A stretch of DNA of 64,000 nt from the sequence record LC768500.1; one strand, written 5' to 3'. Below the pieces are notes generated by a model. That model ran no database searches. It was not told the origin of the DNA and worked only from the letters and a program-made list of their open reading frames with translations. The stretch comes from Klebsiella phage phiKp_32. Every line of letters begins with the position of its first letter. The stretch's first letter is position 1. A program made the translations under genes and the position numbers. Positions 13,098 through 31,400 of the stretch are shown here, piece by piece.

Positions 13098-16000
13098 GTG
13101 AACGGAGACGTTATGGATCAGTACGGTGATCGTATTATTGATGCATTAACAGCGCCTGAATTTTCATCATTGCAACCAGAGGCTCAGTTTAAAACTTATG
13201 CCGAACAATACGGTGGTGACCTTTCTGACGACAAACGTTTTTATGAACCCCTTTATCCCGACTTCACTGACTATAACCGTTTGCATGATACTGCTAAGGT
13301 CGATCCGGTTTACCTGAACGATTTCGATTTTTGTTTGGAAGAAGACCGAGAACGAATCGCATCTTTGATTCGTATGGACTTCAACACCGACACATTCGAA
13401 ACCGTCGCGAGATGTAGCTGTGGGCATCTGAAGGGCAACTATTTGTTGGGTCAGAAAAGATCATGTCCCATCTGCCAATCCCTTGTAGAGAAAGTCGTAG
13501 AGACTTCCTTAGATACTAAGGTATGGGTCAGGGTTCCAGAAGGCGTAGTTGGATTTATCAGTCCGGCTTATTACAAAACCTTCTTATCGAAGATCGCGAC
13601 TAATTCTCCAAAGATTGAGATCGTGACTTGGCTCATCGATCCGTCTTATCGTCGGGGAAGCCGAGCTCAGCATACTGAGTCTGGTCGTCGGATGTTGGCT
13701 GAACTCGATAAACTCGGAATAGTGCCCGGGCTTAACAGCTTTATATTGAACGCGGACAGATTCATGGAACACTTCCTTGTTGGTGAAGGAAGAGGTGCCG
13801 TGAGCATGAAGCCGGCTGATGGTAAAAAGCATTTGGATAAGTATTACGAATATCGTCATCTTATCTTCCCGCGGTACCTGTCCGTACCCAATAAACTCGC
13901 TACCATCATCGAGCAAGATGGTAAAGATAAGTACGTTTCTTCAACCCAATTGAAAACCTCGGCAATCTACCAATCTATTGCAGATACGAGAGATTCTACT
14001 GAGTTTTATAAATGTACGATTAAGGACCTTAAAGAGAACGCTGATATCGTCGGGAAGGCGATAGTTCGATTAGGTAAACAGAACTCTGATAACTATAAGA
14101 GTCAGCTGTTTGCTAAATCGAGCCTGATACGTAAACACGTAATCGCGGGATCATTATCTTTATCAGGTCGTGGTGTTATCACATCAACGACTGGATTACA
14201 TGATGCCGGTGTTGCTAAGATACCTTGGATCATGGCAGTGGCTATGCTGAAGAAACACATCCTGGGATATCTTTACCGTTTAGGGTACAGCCCCCTGAAA
14301 GCCGAAAGTGTAATCAGTACAGCAGCACACCAAGTCGTCCCGGTAATCGATCAATTCTTTACCAAGCACGAAAAGCAAAAAGACATTGTCTGCATTTTAG
14401 GAAGAAACCCATCAATTCAGTACCTGTCAGCAAAAGCCTTCTTCATGTCGATCAACCGAGATTTAGAAGACGAGTCGATAAACTTACCAATACTCTCAGT
14501 TAAAACCTTTAATGCTAAATCAAGAAGTGAGAGTTCCATACTTTTGTGAGAGAAAGCATGAGAACTATTGAGTTTGAAAGAACACCACGTGAAACAGTAC
14601 TTTTTGAAGAAGACGGTTGGGCTCATCACCCGACTATCAAAAACATCCTATTAAAGGAGAAAGGAAACACTTATCGTTTATTTACCGACGGTAAATGGAA
14701 CGAAGTTATTCCCGAACAAAAATCGAGATACATTTATGTATCCTTTGGCGGGATAGAAATACCCCTTCATCAATTAAAGCTGGAAACCTTTTTAGAAAGA
14801 CCAGCTTCTACCGAAGGACTTAAATTGTTAGGCAATCATATCGATGGTGATATCTTTAATAACGACATCGATAACCTTGAATGGGTGACCTACAGAGGAA
14901 ACATCATTCATGCCTATGAATCAGGATTAAGATCAGATAATAAGCCGTTGGTTTTGGTCGATTTACATTCAGGCGAGGAATTTCCGTTCTATAGCCTAAA
15001 TGAATGTGCTAGATATCTGAAACTTAACCCCTCTAAGATAACCCAGTTTTTGAGAAAGAAGAGAAGTTACCCATTCCAGTGGAAATACGATTTCAAACTA
15101 GATGGGTTGTCTCCTAATAATCTGACCTCTAAAGACGTTGGTAAGGCATCGCAAAATAAACCAAGACCTTTTATTATGCGAAACATAAATACCGGCGAAG
15201 AAAGAGAACTTGGGCTCTATCGTTCGATTAGAAGAATTTGGGGCGTGTCGGAAAGAACTCTCCAAAAAGTTTTAAGCGGTAAAATGAAGATAGATGATGT
15301 TTGGGAATTTGTGCCGATTACTGATCCCGACAGACTTATCCATCTTTCTAATACACTGCCAGACATAAAGGAGGCGTTTGATACAACTTCTAATAGAAAA
15401 AATATGGCGGCTAAAAAGTCTAAAGCGATTAAAGTAACGGGTCCTGATGAAACCACGTTCTATTCGTCTATTAAAGACTTTTCACAGAAAAACGGATTCA
15501 ACGCCGCAACCATACAAAAGTTTATTTATAAGAACCCGGGGAAACCCTGGAAGAATTATGTTATCACGTATGTTTAACTCTCACTTCTTTGGCCCAGTAG
15601 ACGCGAAAGCTCTGCTGCGTACTCTCTCTAATTGCTGGAAACTCCTAAAGCTCGTTCACCTCGTATAGAGGGGTCGAAAGACAGAAACAACGAACGAGAT
15701 ATCTCACGCTAACCAATAATGCTAAAAGATAAATAATGGGTTACCTAGCAGCGAACCCTACCTCGGTAGGAGACGTTCAACGACTAGAGCTGAAACGCTC
15801 GTAGGATCCTAGTGTGGATCCGAAATGGGAGAGGACCTAAGTTTGACAGTAGTCAAATATGGTTAAGATATAGTCTGTGCCCTCAGGAAATCTGAGGGAG
15901 GGTGTCTCAGCACACCTGCTCCATATGGAACGGAGTGGACAATCAGGATTTTGACGGTAAACGTATTGCCGCCTAGCTTAGTAATGAGTTAGTGAATAAG

Positions 16001-16458
16001 TGCGGAATGAAGCGTAGAAGCTGAAATGCCGATGCGAACCGAAGGTCTAAGAGTAACGTCTTGACCAGGGGCAGAGCGTAGGAGATGAAACCATTTATGG
16101 AATATAATTCTCCCAAGAGGCCGCACCACGATGAGTATTAATCTCATCCGCTCTTTTAGAGCGCCTATCGTGAACGAGGGTGAAAACGTACGCCACACAA
16201 TCCGAATAGAAAGGGTTGAGCTAAGAGATAAAAAACTCTTAGGCGAATAGATCTTTATTCGTAATGATGGATACCATGTACTGTTATGTATTGAGTGATT
16301 TAAAAGGTAAGGCCAAAGCGTATGGGTCGTTCGGTCATCAGTCCATGCTTGATGAAAACGAACCATTTACAATAAGTCGATTTGCTGATCAAACTTCAAC
16401 GAATTTGATGAACCTCAACAACATGATGAGAGGAACACCAATCAATGAATGCGGCTGA
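13098..16458 (+). CDS. multisubunit RNAP beta'-like N-terminal subunit (non-virion RNAP type), interrupted. Predicted exons 13098-14516, 15947-15958 (DFDG) and 16270-16458, about 539 aa
   Basis: Zn finger CSCGHx13CPIC; RGVITS and ILGRNPSIQ segments match beta' GRSVIT and LNRAPTLH. Exon 1 ends in NA, the micro-exon gives DFDG, and exon 3 DTMYCYVLSDL...NEPFTISRFADQ...LMNLNNMMR matches DQMAVHVPL...NGEPIIVPSQD...VLGLYYMTR. Confidence 0.5.
14517..15946 (+). mobile_element. group I intron carrying an HNH homing-endonuclease ORF
   Basis: Conserved core R-like gttcaacgactag (about 15775-15787) and S-like aagatatagtc (about 15865-15875) forming P7 GACUA/UAGUC. P9 hairpins follow; terminal G sits just before gattttgacggt; 5' exon ends in U. 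Confidence 0.55.
14558..15577 (+). CDS. HNH homing endonuclease with three NUMOD-like helix repeats (intron-encoded)
   Basis: LGNHIDGDIFNNDIDNLEWVT HNH motif; three repeats of the type LNECARYLKLNPSKITQFL. Confidence 0.7.
   Translation: MRTIEFERTPRETVLFEEDGWAHHPTIKNILLKEKGNTYRLFTDGKWNEVIPEQKSRYIYVSFGGIEIPLHQLKLETFLERPASTEGLKLLGNHIDGDIFNNDIDNLEWVTYRGNIIHAYESGLRSDNKPLVLVDLHSGEEFPFYSLNECARYLKLNPSKITQFLRKKRSYPFQWKYDFKLDGLSPNNLTSKDVGKASQNKPRPFIMRNINTGEERELGLYRSIRRIWGVSERTLQKVLSGKMKIDDVWEFVPITDPDRLIHLSNTLPDIKEAFDTTSNRKNMAAKKSKAIKVTGPDETTFYSSIKDFSQKNGFNAATIQKFIYKNPGKPWKNYVITYV
15959..16269 (+). mobile_element. putative second, ORF-less intervening sequence (small group I-like intron) separating the DFDG micro-exon from exon 3
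   Basis: Needed to join DFDG to D-TMYCY in frame. Plausible P1: exon CGGU pairs with intron GCCG (U-G wobble) after a 9-nt loop. Intron ends in G. Confidence 0.35.
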
Positions 16459-27463: not shown

Positions 27464-30400
27464 ATGGCAGAAAAATTTGTCTATAAGAAACCCATAAACC
27501 AGCTTAAACCAGAGTTGATGTCTATCAATATTAACTTGAACTCATTTCCCTGGTCGGTTTCATCGTCACGTCAATATATGTTGGGTGGTAACGTAGCTAA
27601 AGCAGTTTCCATACAAGGGGCGTCGACAAGACGCAATCCTACCGGCTTCGAACCAGAATATGCTAAGTACGCTCGTAAAGTCGTAGCCCCGTCAAACATG
27701 ACTGTAGAGAGAACATTTTATCAGCGATCTCTACAACCCGGTAGCAATCTTGCAGATGATTGGGCGGAGATCCACGTTATCTTCTTTAATGAAGAACACC
27801 AGCTTTATGATCTCTTAACTATTCCACGATTTAATACGCAGAATACTTACGTTGGGTTTGAGTACAAACTTAACAAGGATAACCTTCGTAAACTCAGTAC
27901 AGAATCACCGACCTTTAAGAAAGGCGATGTGTTTGCGTATTCTCCAAATATCAGCGATACTGGAGAGTGGATGTTTGGTACTGAGGCGATGGTTTGTGGG
28001 ATGACCGCACCTTATACCGAAGAAGACGGCATTGCTATTACTGAGAGCTTTGCTCGTAAGCTGACCAGCATCTTCCAGCATTCTCGTAAGTTCTCCTGGA
28101 ACGAAGCAGAGTACGTCCCCCTGAATCTTTATGGAACATTAGATTCCCCACGACCGTTCCCTGAGAACGGAGAAAGTATTCGTAGTGACGGCATCGTCAT
28201 GGGATTCCGTAGACGTGACACTTCGAGCGCTCTGGTGGGCTTAACCAAAAAAGCACTCATGCGTCCTGATCAAACTTATGATATTCTTTTCTACGCACCT
28301 AAAGATTGTGTTGTTAAAAATATCTCCGTCAAGTCAGATCGTTATAAGAACGTTTCCAATAACAAACGTCAGGAGAAGATTACTCAGCCTCACACTCAGT
28401 TGCTGGAACGTTATGAACAGCGCTCTAACCAAATGGCGTTTGAGGTCCAGGAGTGGTATTACCGGATGGATGCGAAGTTTAAAGATTCCGATCTTCCTTT
28501 CACCCATGCGCTCCAAGAGTTCATCTCTAAACAGTTAGGCGACGTCACTAAAAACTTCGCTACCGGCAAGTATAACCAGGTCAAGCGAACTCACCGCAAT
28601 AAGGCGCTTTTGGATTGGAACGTCGAGATTACTTTAAAGGAAAGAGTCACTGCGCGTAAACGTTTTAAAATTACCGACACTCAAGGTGCTTCGCCCCACA
28701 AGTATCCGTTATCTTAAAATGATGTTGGGGTTGTAAAGACTTTTTGAAGGAGGTCTTTATGACGGTGAAATTGATAGGAAATCCCGATATAGAAGTAGAC
28801 TTACTCGAAAAGTCTTTATTTATAAAGGGAGAAGAAATTATTGAAGGGAACGCCTTCCGAGTAGATTTATTCGGTGGAAGTTTCCAAGTGACACGGGAAT
28901 GGCTAATCTCGTTCGCTCGTTATAACTTGGATATCCCAAAAGAGCATGTCGATAAAATAACCTTTATTCGATTTGCTAAAACATGGTCTCCGTTTCGTAA
29001 AACCAATAAGCGATACGAAATACCCGTCTTTGACGAACCTATGGTTTCTGAAGACGGATACGCGATCATACCAACCGATTTTGAATATGAAATTAGTCGG
29101 GAAGGAGTTATTAGAAATCGTAAGACCAAACGAATCGCTCCATTGTACGAGAAAGACTACCTTTTTTGTTCGCTAAAGGGAGAGGAAAGGTTACATCGTA
29201 CTGTGGCTCTTGTTTGGTGCTATAACGAGAACTTCGAAACACGACCGATTGTTAATCATAAAGATGGAAATAAGCTTAATCCTCACGCAGATAACTTGGA
29301 ATGGTCATCGTTTTCTTTAAACGCAATTCATGCGTTTAAAGAAGGGCTTAGGGATGATAATAAGCCTTGTGTGATGAGGAACATCTTTACCGGAGAGGTT
29401 ACTGAGTTTTATTCGGTAAGTGCCGTTGCTTATGAATTCGGACTAGGATTTGAGTCAGCCTTCGCGTACCTTAAACGTAAAATGCGGCAATCCCCTTTCA
29501 TGAAAGAATATGAGTTTGTGTTGAAAGGAGATCCTTGGGAAATTCCGTTGGGCGGTATAAAGGGAGTAAGAGGGCGGTATCTCTTCACTATAGAAAAACC
29601 AAATGGTGAAGTGGTATACCGGACCAATATCCCTAAAATCATATCCGAATTCAAGTTATGGAATCTCCCGAGTTGGTCGAAGGATTGCGTTGTAGAAAGG
29701 ATGAAGGAAGAACATCCCGATTGGTCGATTTCTGTTATTGATTACTTTAGGGCGGGCGAGTATCAGGTCAAAAACCTACAAACCGGAGAAGTGATCGATT
29801 TCGTAAAACCCGCCGAAGTATCCGGGTTGATAGGCGTCCCTCGTCAAACCATTAATAAGTGGTTAACCGAAAAACAATTTAACGTCAATCACAACGGTTG
29901 GGTATTCAGGGAGAAATCATCTTCTGAATGGGATGAGGTTTTCCCGAAACCCAATTCTAAGAAAGCGGTATTGGTGACCGACATCAATACAGGTAAAGTG
30001 TCTGAGTTTGAATCCGTAATAGCCGCGGCTTCTCACTTTGGTATTAACAAACGTTCAGTGGGTAGAAGGATACTATCCGGAAGTCTTTTCGAGAGCAAGA
30101 AGTTTAGTTACAAGCCCCAACATCCTTCATAAGACATTTGATATTTGTGAGACAGGGCCGGCTAGGCACGAAAGTCCTAGACCGTTATCTCTTTGAATTG
30201 CTGGAAAAACCACAAAAGTCTGATGCCTGCTTAGCAGGAGGGGATAACCCGGAAATAAGTTCAGACCTGACCTATGCTAACCAATAACGCTAAGGGTCGT
30301 TAAAAAGGGTGGATCAGCAGCGAACCCTACTTCGGTAGGAGGCGTTCAACGACTAAGGCCTAACCAGCCTGTACTGGAGACATGATGTTTCTGGGAAGTG

Positions 30401-31400
30401 GAGAGAGACCTAAGTTCGGCTCTAGCCGAATATGGTTAAGATATAGTCTGTTCCCTAATAACACTAGGGCGGGTGTCTTCGCACACCGGGTTCCACGATG
30501 GAACTGGACAAAAAGAAAGGTGTAATCGTTCACATTATACCCGATGCTAACGCACCGCGATACGCCGATGGACGTCGATCAGAAGTCATTATTAACAATA
30601 CTCCTGCTTTTAGACGCCAGATCTTTTCGGCGTTAATAGAAGCTGGGGTTAACTTAATAGGCTTGGAGATCGAAAACAGGATCAGAGTTCTCGTTGCTCA
30701 AAATGGAGGGTATAAGAAAGCTTATCAGGAGCTCATTAAGTTTTATCGTTCTACCGCTCCGGAGTTCGCTGATATCGTTGATACCGCTCTCCCCACGGAA
30801 GAAGAACAATTCGATCACGTTGACTTTGTGTTGAGTGATAAGATCTCTGTTCAGCGTCGAAGCGACACTCAGCTGTATGGCGCGGATATTCTGAGATTGA
30901 TGCGGGAAACCTATCCGGATATCAAACCTCAAAAGGCAATTTACGTTAACGAGCTCGGTCAGGAAATCACCACCATGTTCCCTGTCAGTATCAGCAGCAT
31001 GTATTACATCCTGCTTGATAAGTTCGGTAACGATATGAGTTGCCAGTCATTCCCTAAGCGTAACGTGTACGGTCTGCCGTCTAAGTTGAATCATGGCGAT
31101 CGTTATAGGGATTGGCACCGCGCTCAACCAGGTCGTAATATGGGTGAGGCAGAATCACGTCAGAAAAATACTCAAATGGGGGGAGAGGAAGTTGTAAGGC
31201 AGTTGGCGGCAGCTAACTCCCCTTACGTTTGTATCATGATGACGAAACGTATTATTCGGGCTGATAATCCGTTCCGAATTAAAACCATTATTAAACCTGA
31301 AGAGTATGCGATGAGCCGATCTTTGGGAATGACGATGAATTTACTCAACGACGCGGGTTATACTTTACGTAAGGAAAAAGACAGTGATCTTACTTCGTGA
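27464..31400 (+). CDS. multisubunit RNAP beta-like C-terminal subunit, interrupted by a group I intron. Predicted exons 27464-28690 and 30516-31400, about 703 aa
   Basis: MTAPYTEEDGIAITE matches beta MPWNGYNFEDSILVSE. The junction TQGA|KGVIVHIIPDANAPRYADGRRSEVIINNTPAFRRQ matches [20 protein letters not shown]…VLNPLGVPSRMNIGQ. MYYILLDK…DMSCQSF and LGMTMNLL match the beta C-terminus. Confidence 0.55.
28691..30515 (+). mobile_element. group I intron with HNH homing-endonuclease ORF; paralogous to the 14517-15946 intron
   Basis: Core at 30270-30515 is about 75% identical to 15700-15946: aaccaataaYgctaa, cagcgaaccctacYtcggtagga, gttcaacgactaRg, gacctaagtt, aatatggttaagatatagtctgt. The 3' end uggacaaaaaG parallels uggacaaucaG. 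Confidence 0.55.
28744..30132 (+). CDS. HNH homing endonuclease with NUMOD-like repeats (intron-encoded)
   Basis: VNHKDGNKLNPHADNLEWSS HNH motif; three repeats NIFTGEVTEF…, NLQTGEVIDF…, DINTGKVSEF…. Confidence 0.7.
   Translation: MKEVFMTVKLIGNPDIEVDLLEKSLFIKGEEIIEGNAFRVDLFGGSFQVTREWLISFARYNLDIPKEHVDKITFIRFAKTWSPFRKTNKRYEIPVFDEPMVSEDGYAIIPTDFEYEISREGVIRNRKTKRIAPLYEKDYLFCSLKGEERLHRTVALVWCYNENFETRPIVNHKDGNKLNPHADNLEWSSFSLNAIHAFKEGLRDDNKPCVMRNIFTGEVTEFYSVSAVAYEFGLGFESAFAYLKRKMRQSPFMKEYEFVLKGDPWEIPLGGIKGVRGRYLFTIEKPNGEVVYRTNIPKIISEFKLWNLPSWSKDCVVERMKEEHPDWSISVIDYFRAGEYQVKNLQTGEVIDFVKPAEVSGLIGVPRQTINKWLTEKQFNVNHNGWVFREKSSSEWDEVFPKPNSKKAVLVTDINTGKVSEFESVIAAASHFGINKRSVGRRILSGSLFESKKFSYKPQHPS

Follow-up and report, generated by a model that had tools for sequence, protein, structure and literature searches.

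The 64,000-nucleotide (nt) stretch of DNA analysed here (record LC768500.1, Klebsiella phage phiKp_32; hereafter the window) contains, at positions 13113–16458, a gene for a subunit of a multisubunit RNA polymerase that is interrupted by two group I introns, predicted to be self-splicing, lying 12 nt apart. All parts of this gene and of its introns described below are on the plus strand. Exon 1 (13113–14516) is followed by intron A (14517–15946, 1430 nt), a micro-exon (15947–15958), intron B (15959–16269, 311 nt) and exon 3 (16270–16458). The 670-residue product encoded upstream is chimallin, the nuclear-shell protein, according to its annotation and to Pfam PF25677 on the same gene. The source of the window is therefore a nucleus-forming jumbo phage, and it is Miamivirus-like.

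Judged by its sequence, the split gene encodes the N-terminal β′ subunit of the non-virion RNA polymerase and is homologous to phiKZ gp55. The uninterrupted orthologue from phage KPN8 matches PHIKZ055 of the solved non-virion enzyme (PDB 7ogp_A, E 4e-36) with the NADFDGD motif aligned, and it also matches bacterial β′ around NADFDGD (E about 1e-5). Its score for Pfam RNA_pol_Rpb1_2 is 34.8 bits against a cut-off of 25.3. In the window, NADFDGD arises only once the three exons are joined. Exon 1 is an open reading frame (ORF) of codons 1–468, with GTG 13098 as an alternative start, and closes with ...TTTAATGCT (...ILSVKTFNA) at 14516; its frame runs on into KSRSESSILL and a stop at 14549, without DFDGD. 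The last base of exon 1 is a U (GCU), the base that a group I 5′ splice site requires at the end of the exon. The micro-exon, GAUUUUGACGGU, occupies 15947–15958, where GATTTTGACGGT, immediately 3′ of G15946, encodes the D-F-D-G of the motif. Exon 3, also an ORF, opens GAT ACC ATG TAC at 16270, right after G16269, and encodes D-TMYCYVLSDL...NECG (62 codons and a stop), the same protein as in relatives. Joining 14516 to 15947 and 15958 to 16270 gives a 534-residue protein, for which the predicted tryptic peptide across the rejoined motif is TFNADFDGDTMYCYVLSDLK.

Five phages are 96–99% identical to the window over this region: Klebsiella phages Miami, KPN8 and YC1, Stenotrophomonas phage BUCTxx100 and Raoultella phage VB_ZK_P1. 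Three of them (KPN8, BUCTxx100 and YC1) read ...TTTAATGCT GACTTCGACGGC GATACGATG... uninterrupted (AATGCT GACTTCGACGGC GATACG), the micro-exon being collinear with their GACTTCGACGGC. The region measures 1760 nt in these three, as opposed to 3501 nt in the window, and the difference of 1741 is exactly 1430 plus 311. Intron A is missing precisely at AATGCT|GAY, with the reading frame restored, in the same three phages and in Miami. Intron B is missing equally precisely, with GGT/GGC followed directly by GAY, in KPN8, BUCTxx100, YC1 and two metagenomic contigs (L136 and L141) that carry intron A alone. Both junctions, and the 12-nt DFDG exon between them, had been placed at these positions by an earlier note made from the letters of the window; the intronless and singly occupied alleles bear them out.

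The joined 534-residue product shows no amino-acid difference from those of KPN8, BUCTxx100 and YC1 or from the spliced product of Miami, although the coding sequences differ from these four relatives at 23–45 nucleotides (42–45 for the first three), all of them synonymous. All three exons are thus under complete purifying selection. Such constancy bears on the possibility that the gene is a decaying pseudogene, inactivated by mobile elements in a phage that relies on another β′-like subunit. The unspliced frame does stop at 14549 short of DFDGD, phages of this kind also encode a second, virion polymerase, and public records treat the pieces as unrelated genes: for VB_ZK_P1 (L002, 414–2694) and Miami (L003, 414–3433) the exon pieces are listed as separate hypothetical proteins. 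The DFDG micro-exon of VB_ZK_P1 falls in the reading frame of no annotated feature, so the catalytic motif is absent from its predicted proteome. A decaying gene would nevertheless have to have kept three exons free of amino-acid change, two introns with intact ribozyme cores and splice-site pairings, and an arrangement that recurs in VB_ZK_P1 and in contigs L138 and L140, and the solved non-virion polymerase of phiKZ contains its homologue as a subunit. We therefore give inactivation next to no credence. The earlier note had proposed that a second DFDGD-containing gene elsewhere in the genome would mark this one as a pseudogene; such a gene is uninformative, because these phages encode two polymerases.

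The micro-exon itself is too improbable to be a coincidence. A 12-mer encoding DFDG (32 of 4^12 sequences) is expected about 0.003 times in 1750 nt, and this expectation, together with intronless alleles shorter by exactly 1741 nt and the unchanged 534-residue product, excludes chance. In L136 and L141 these 12 nt run straight on into exon 3, in Miami they follow exon 1 without a break, and across alleles they are kept as DFDG codons with synonymous changes only. Alleles with an intron at the site of intron B (site B) have GGT as the last codon, and those with an empty site B have GGC; GGT creates the U·G wobble pair of the intron B P1 helix. The first 2–3 nt of the micro-exon can form the P10 pairing of intron A, and its last 4–6 nt form P1 of intron B. 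Its length would thus just suffice for it to act as the 3′ exon of intron A and the 5′ exon of intron B.

Intron A is a group I intron, predicted to be capable of guanosine-dependent self-splicing. Its ribozyme core (P2–P9, 15572–15898) matches the full-length Rfam group I model (Intron_gpI, RF00028) at 58.6 bits (gathering score 50; E 2.7e-12), which answers for this intron the Rfam scan that the earlier note had suggested. The RF00028 alignment places two hairpins, P7.1 and P7.2, between P7 and P3′, which in group I nomenclature is the arrangement of subgroup IA, and intron A is accordingly of IA type. P1 would form between GCU|AAA (14514–14519) and UUUGGC (15588–15593), with U14516·G15591 at the splice site; this pairing was read by eye from the sequence and is supported by the Rfam placement of P1 in the VB_ZK_P1 copy of the intron. 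That copy, at the same site, is 365 nt long, lacks an ORF and scores 63.8 bits with RF00028. A perfect 12-base-pair (bp) stem between GAAGUGAGAGUU (14524–14535) and AACUCUCACUUC (15576–15587) closes the P1 loop, which holds an endonuclease gene upstream of the ribozyme core, and the intron ends with G15946. In Pseudomonas phage EL, the polymerase gene next to that of chimallin is interrupted at the same NA|DFDGD site by a homologous intron with a homologous endonuclease; the EL stem at the equivalent position has a different sequence.

The gene within intron A (14558–15577) encodes a putative I-HmuI-like HNH homing endonuclease of 339 residues. The HNH assignment, already made in the earlier note, agrees with a match to PHROG 59 (‘HNH endonuclease’, E 4e-30) and with an NHID...NLEW...IHA motif visible in the sequence. 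ATG 14558 is the most likely start, and GTG 14546 is possible. I-HmuI and I-BasI, encoded in the DNA polymerase introns of Bacillus phages, are HNH endonucleases that nick DNA. The window protein, likewise encoded inside a phage group I intron, has a candidate HNH motif at its N terminus and, after it, candidate NUMOD-like DNA-binding modules, both sub-threshold in Pfam; its host gene differs, being polymerase β′ rather than DNA polymerase. It may nick or cleave the intron-minus allele at a specific site, of which the indirect signs are a dense synonymous tract beside the insertion site and the presence of this endonuclease family at the same site in EL. The nearest relative in a collection of 50,697 phage records is EL gp025 (37% identity), which is also intron-encoded; no phage in that collection encodes the protein at ≥60% identity. 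An identical protein is encoded on 9 metagenomic contigs, among them L136, L137, L138, L140 and L141, so the endonuclease-bearing form of intron A circulates even though it is absent from the phage collection.

Intron B gives no match to RF00028 even at E ≤ 10 in an Rfam scan of 15880–16330, and on this point the scan suggested in the earlier note failed to support the second intron; for this reason, intron B had to be shown by comparative analysis. The other Rfam matches in that interval at E ≤ 10 (snoR26, the PutA thermometer and a DsrA fragment) are noise. Intron B is a compact group I intron without an ORF and is predicted to splice itself. Its internal guide sequence (15963–15971) supplies both splice-site pairings. 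GCCG (15968–15971) pairs with exon CGGU (15955–15958) to form P1, including the wobble U15958·G15968, and GUAUU (15963–15967) forms a 5-bp P10 with GAUAC of exon 3 (16270–16274). The P10 pairing covaries with the exon, being GUGUU/GACAC in Miami and GGUU/GACC in CF8. The absence of an ORF, the P1 with its wobble pair and the terminal G (G16269) had all been recognised in the earlier note; all three hold, and covariation in the family described below supports the pairing.

Downstream of the guide, a 7-bp P2 hairpin with a GUAA loop (15974–15991) shows compensatory changes in L138 and in Aeromonas phage copies (UAACCUA/UGGGUUA in L138 as opposed to UAGCUUA/UGAGUUA). P3 (16000–16005 with 16121–16126) is crossed by P7 (GCGUA, 16076–16080, with UACGC, 16189–16193), which gives the group I pseudoknot. 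The P4–P6 domain (16013–16069) consists of P4 (16013–16016/16033–16036), a weak P5 (16020–16021/16028–16029), P6 (16039–16040/16068–16069) and P6a (16044–16051/16057–16066). A P7.1 hairpin, a subgroup IA feature, lies between P7 and P3′ (16081–16113). P8 (16127–16129/16180–16182) encloses an insertion, the whole spanning 16127–16182, which folding predicts to form a pair of hairpins and which is absent from most family members. A large P8 insertion at 16131–16176, ending in ...CCTA(T/A)CGT..AACGAGGGTG, is shared with a single, unrelated family member (L128, alignment columns ~218–270); the other 59 members lack it. The 3′ stems (16198–16261) comprise P9 (16198–16203/16213–16218), P9.1 (16221–16227/16236–16242) and an extra hairpin (16244–16261). 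Thermodynamic folding of intron B gives a minimum-free-energy z-score of −2.87 and a centroid structure that contains P1, P2, P3, P6a, P7.1, P9 and P9.1.

BLAST relatives of intron B occur in Aeromonas phages ZPAH34, CF8 and AhC3_1. These copies follow ...GGDFDG (GGT|AAA) in a β′-like gene that adjoins the virion polymerase β gene. They thus occupy the same DFDG|D codon position as in the window, but in a different polymerase gene and without intron A. A retrieval pattern built on two conserved segments, GAACCGAAGG...CAGGGGCAGAGC, recovered more than 120 IMG/VR contigs, a lower bound, while a stricter one (GGGGCAGAGCRTAG...GAGGCCGCAC) had no match in the viral contigs. Loci L009–L128 (for example L026, 6829–7101) represent widespread compact group I introns of phages and prophages, about 250 nt long and with very conserved junction segments; many sit after a GGU codon. 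Among ten family loci tested, RF00028 recognises one, weakly and at full length (L038, 1452–1692; 23.6 bits, E 0.028). A typical member has a BLAST match in Lactobacillus phage JCL1032, in the gene for the large terminase subunit (its coding sequence is annotated as a join), and another in S. thermophilus phage 2972 near 2.3 kb. Phage 2972 has been reported to carry two group I introns (PMC3364186), whose identity with the matched segment is unconfirmed. Intron B shares conserved core segments and helices with the JCL1032 and 2972 sequences; unlike them, it resides in the polymerase gene of a jumbo phage of Gram-negative bacteria and has extra P8 and 3′-terminal hairpins. Two loci of the family hold tandem introns. 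L038 has three group I introns within ~1.3 kb (452–673, 1011–1235 and 1452–1692), two classical (102–112 bits) and one compact, and L108 has two compact copies (1092–1366 and 1554–1824).

For a test of covariation, 61 family members at <90% identity were aligned with MAFFT and an explicit structure was evaluated on the alignment. Standard pairs are formed in 89.5% of the cells, compared with 28–43% when the partners are slid. Cells changed on both sides number 634, compared with 189 in shuffles, and 40 of the 51 pairs show such changes. Pairing is nearly invariable in the core (P3 99.2%, P7 100%, P7.1 100%, P8 97.5% of cells). All six P3 pairs change on both sides; all five P7.1 pairs covary, as do the three variable pairs of P4 (GC/AU/UA) and one P7 pair (AU 52, GC 9). 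NGGU stands 6–12 nt upstream of GCCN′ in 21 of the 61 members, against 0.9 expected. The strand order P3-P4-P5-P6-P7-P7.1-P3′-P8-P7′ is the group I pseudoknot arrangement, and segments J3/4, J6/7 and J8/7 (joining regions between the numbered helices) are conserved.

On a different view, intron B has degenerated into a relic that is not autocatalytic and whose removal depends on a phage or host protein or on the intron A ribozyme. The silence of Rfam, the lack of an ORF, the weak P5 and the extra insertions of the window copy in P8 and after P9.1 would fit a relic. We consider this unlikely. None of the core helices is missing, and all covary across the family; the J3/4, J6/7 and J8/7 segments are conserved, and the U·G wobble of P1, the terminal G and the 5-bp P10 are all in place. 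Related copies stand without intron A in the Aeromonas phages, and the family includes the introns accepted as group I in phage 2972 (PMC3364186; subject to the same unconfirmed match) and the joined coding sequence of JCL1032.

The alleles at this locus fall into six occupancy states. Neither intron is present in KPN8, BUCTxx100 and YC1; intron A alone is found in L136 and L141; introns A and B occur together in the window, L138 and L140; VB_ZK_P1 combines the ORF-less form of A with B; Miami has an empty site A and a different intron at site B; and L137 joins intron A to a Miami-type endonuclease intron at site B, so that the 12-nt exon stands between two endonuclease-bearing introns. The separate occurrence of intron A and the site B introns, in different combinations, shows them to be independent elements. 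The DNA architecture and the membership of the two introns in distinct RNA structure families are likewise established by these comparisons. The intron of Miami at site B (L003, 1830–3244; 1415 nt, RF00028 42.9 bits, E 1.5e-8) carries its own gene for a 328-residue HNH protein, downstream of a ribozyme core that differs from that of intron B. Its first ~15 nt, AAACGTGTTGCCGTCC, nearly match the start of the compact intron B, AAACGTATTGCCGCC (window 15959–15973). This near match suggests that the two introns, unrelated in other respects, share or have exchanged their P1 loop and guide sequence.

These occupancy states also bear on whether 14517–16269 is one composite intron or a twintron, from which the 12 nt encoding DFDG are removed along with the rest, by skipping or by a single ribozyme. 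Exon skipping has been documented for tandem group I introns around exons of 23 nt (Twort) and 34 nt (Coxiella) (PMC10136302). In the window, GAU starts the micro-exon and exon 3 alike, so that the short P10 of intron A cannot discriminate between the two, and skipping would keep the frame, as exactly 12 nt would be lost. Yet the loss would remove the Mg2+-binding aspartates of an essential enzyme, and the 12 nt have been kept as DFDG codons with only synonymous change. Site A alone is occupied in L136 and L141 and site B alone in Miami. The ribozymes of A and B differ in family and in guide sequence, a condition that suppresses skipping according to PMC10136302. A composite intron is thus very improbable. 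The twintron form was rejected outright, since a coding exon separates A and B and each site is occupied alone in other genomes.

Insertions in this motif are not confined to the two sites of the window. Aeromonas phage AVP1 (L130, ~2834 and ~4280) and IMG/VR contigs L133 and L134 (~5395) have an insertion at NAD|FDGD, 3 nt beyond site A, and the AVP1 intron endonuclease is 31% identical to that of the window. Contig L135 carries a classical intron at DFDG|D, and L132 carries none. With insertions at NA|D, NAD|F and DFDG|D, the DFDGD codons appear to be an intron hotspot in nucleus-forming jumbo phages, with three insertion points within five codons. Possible traces of homing are seen beside site A. 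The window and BUCTxx100 differ at 42 positions over 1760 nt, and 14 of the differences, all synonymous, lie between +2 and +53 from site A. This tract is compatible with co-conversion by a diverged donor, or with selection that favoured resistance to the nuclease.

We consider it highly probable that two group I introns, 12 bp apart, independently invaded the β′ N-terminal gene inside the codons of its Mg2+ loop, NADFDGD, and that splicing restores the motif. Intron A, a subgroup IA ribozyme with an I-HmuI-like HNH gene in its P1 loop, would have inserted at NA|D, and intron B, an ORF-less member of a widespread compact phage family, at DFDG|D. Each ribozyme would locate its own splice sites through its own guide sequence, that of intron A pairing with exon GCU and that of intron B with exon CGGU (P1) and with GAUAC of exon 3 (P10). 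Two self-splicing reactions would then yield a messenger RNA (mRNA) for the 534-residue subunit with its active site intact. Splicing in vivo, together with its order and fidelity, is predicted here from the sequences.

Several points weigh against this account. The case for splicing derives from an essential gene under complete purifying selection. The P10 of intron A amounts to only 2–3 bp, and both downstream exons start with GAU; P10 alone therefore cannot prevent skipping of the micro-exon, and a minor in-frame product without DFDG is conceivable. The window copy of intron B has a P5 of no more than about 2 bp and a G-G pair in P8, and RF00028 does not detect the intron. The retrieval pattern covers P6 and part of J6/7–P7, so that invariance there is uninformative by construction. 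For the endonuclease, the scores for Pfam HNH_3 (22.4 bits against 24.8) and I-HmuI_NUMOD-like (21.1 against 27) both fall just under their cut-offs.

Introns in jumbo-phage polymerase genes are already known. In PhiPA3, the gp210 intron interrupts gp211/209, a gene of the virion RNA polymerase, where it follows two conserved aspartates of a β-like subunit, and a competitive benefit has been shown for it (PMC11620839, Birkholz et al. 2024); other jumbo-phage introns are those of 201phi2-1 gp273/274 (PMC2919709) and PhiPA3 gp65-66 (PMC11077065). Like the PhiPA3 and 201phi2-1 genes, the split gene of the window is a multisubunit RNA polymerase gene of a nucleus-forming jumbo phage in which a group I intron with an HNH endonuclease sits at conserved codons for catalytic aspartates. 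In contrast to these single introns in β-like subunits, the window has two intron families 12 nt apart in the β′ NADFDGD loop of the non-virion enzyme. The earlier note had judged homing elements on the universally conserved Mg2+-binding codons, and a four-codon exon, to be very unusual. Only part of this judgement stands: homing on active-site codons is typical, as the PhiPA3 and 201phi2-1 polymerase genes illustrate (PMC11620839, PMC2919709), whereas double occupancy and a 12-nt exon are unusual.

Very short exons between tandem introns have precedents elsewhere. PMC10136302 describes Twort orf142, which has three group I introns and a 23-nt internal exon that near-identical introns skip, and the Coxiella burnetii 23S ribosomal RNA, where a 34-nt exon lies between two group I introns and is subject to skipping. 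The window shares with these systems a pair of tandem group I introns around a very short exon that supplies 3′ exon contacts and then the next P1. It differs from Twort in that its exon is about half as long, encodes active-site residues and lies between introns of different families. In mitochondria, mini-exons between group I or group II introns shrink to 3 nt or 1 nt (PMC8971849, citing Cummings 1990 and Osigus 2017). Like these, the micro-exon of the window is invisible to ORF-based annotation and was recovered from intron structure together with protein homology; the mitochondrial examples belong to organelle genomes, often depending on maturases or host factors, while the window belongs to a phage. 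Our literature search found no phage group I micro-exon this short and none that splits the β′ Mg2+ loop, and a search for a DFDGD intron in phiKZ-like phages yielded nothing beyond a general review on polymerases. The phage literature searched contained no example of two group I ribozymes sharing a 12-nt exon.

The double occupancy may itself be functional for the elements, the 15 nt encoding DFDGD being a battleground of competing homing elements. We put this forward as a speculative idea, more doubtful than not. Three mechanisms would be compatible with it. Intron B lies within co-conversion distance of the intron A endonuclease and could be mobilised by hitch-hiking, which would be ‘collaborative homing’ in cis. 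Occupancy of site B by any intron would break the downstream half of the intron A endonuclease target, and vice versa, so that the two could immunise each other's sites. Regulated skipping, finally, could yield a minor in-frame mRNA without DFDG, and hence a catalytically dead, assembly-competent β′ fragment that might modulate the non-virion polymerase. If the idea is correct, the allele series (none, A, B-type, A with B, and A with a second endonuclease intron) would be a record of conflict inside the phage nucleus.

A third group I intron is present elsewhere in the window, at 28688 to ~30515 (the 3′ boundary is approximate), with an HNH ORF at 28744–30132 (462 residues) and an Rfam Intron_gpI match at 30118–30469. 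It interrupts an RNA polymerase β-like gene (...KITDTQG | KGVIVHIIPD...). The five related phage genomes are each ~1825 nt shorter at this position, which makes this intron specific to the window phage.

The arrangement has consequences for how such genomes are read. When these phages are annotated by ORFs, an essential polymerase subunit loses its catalytic motif; only intron structure and homology taken together can reveal a 12-nt exon. The intron B family, present in more than 120 viral contigs, escapes the Rfam group I model. With about 3 nt given to P10 and 4–6 nt to P1, the 12 nt shared by two unrelated ribozymes suggest a natural lower bound on the length of an exon between tandem group I introns. 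The shared micro-exon also offers a test bed for splice-site fidelity and exon skipping. The occurrence of every occupancy state in nature and the three insertion points in five codons provide a ready system for the study of intron and endonuclease competition, and extend to this locus the finding from PhiPA3 and PhiKZ that intron endonucleases serve as weapons between co-infecting nucleus-forming phages.

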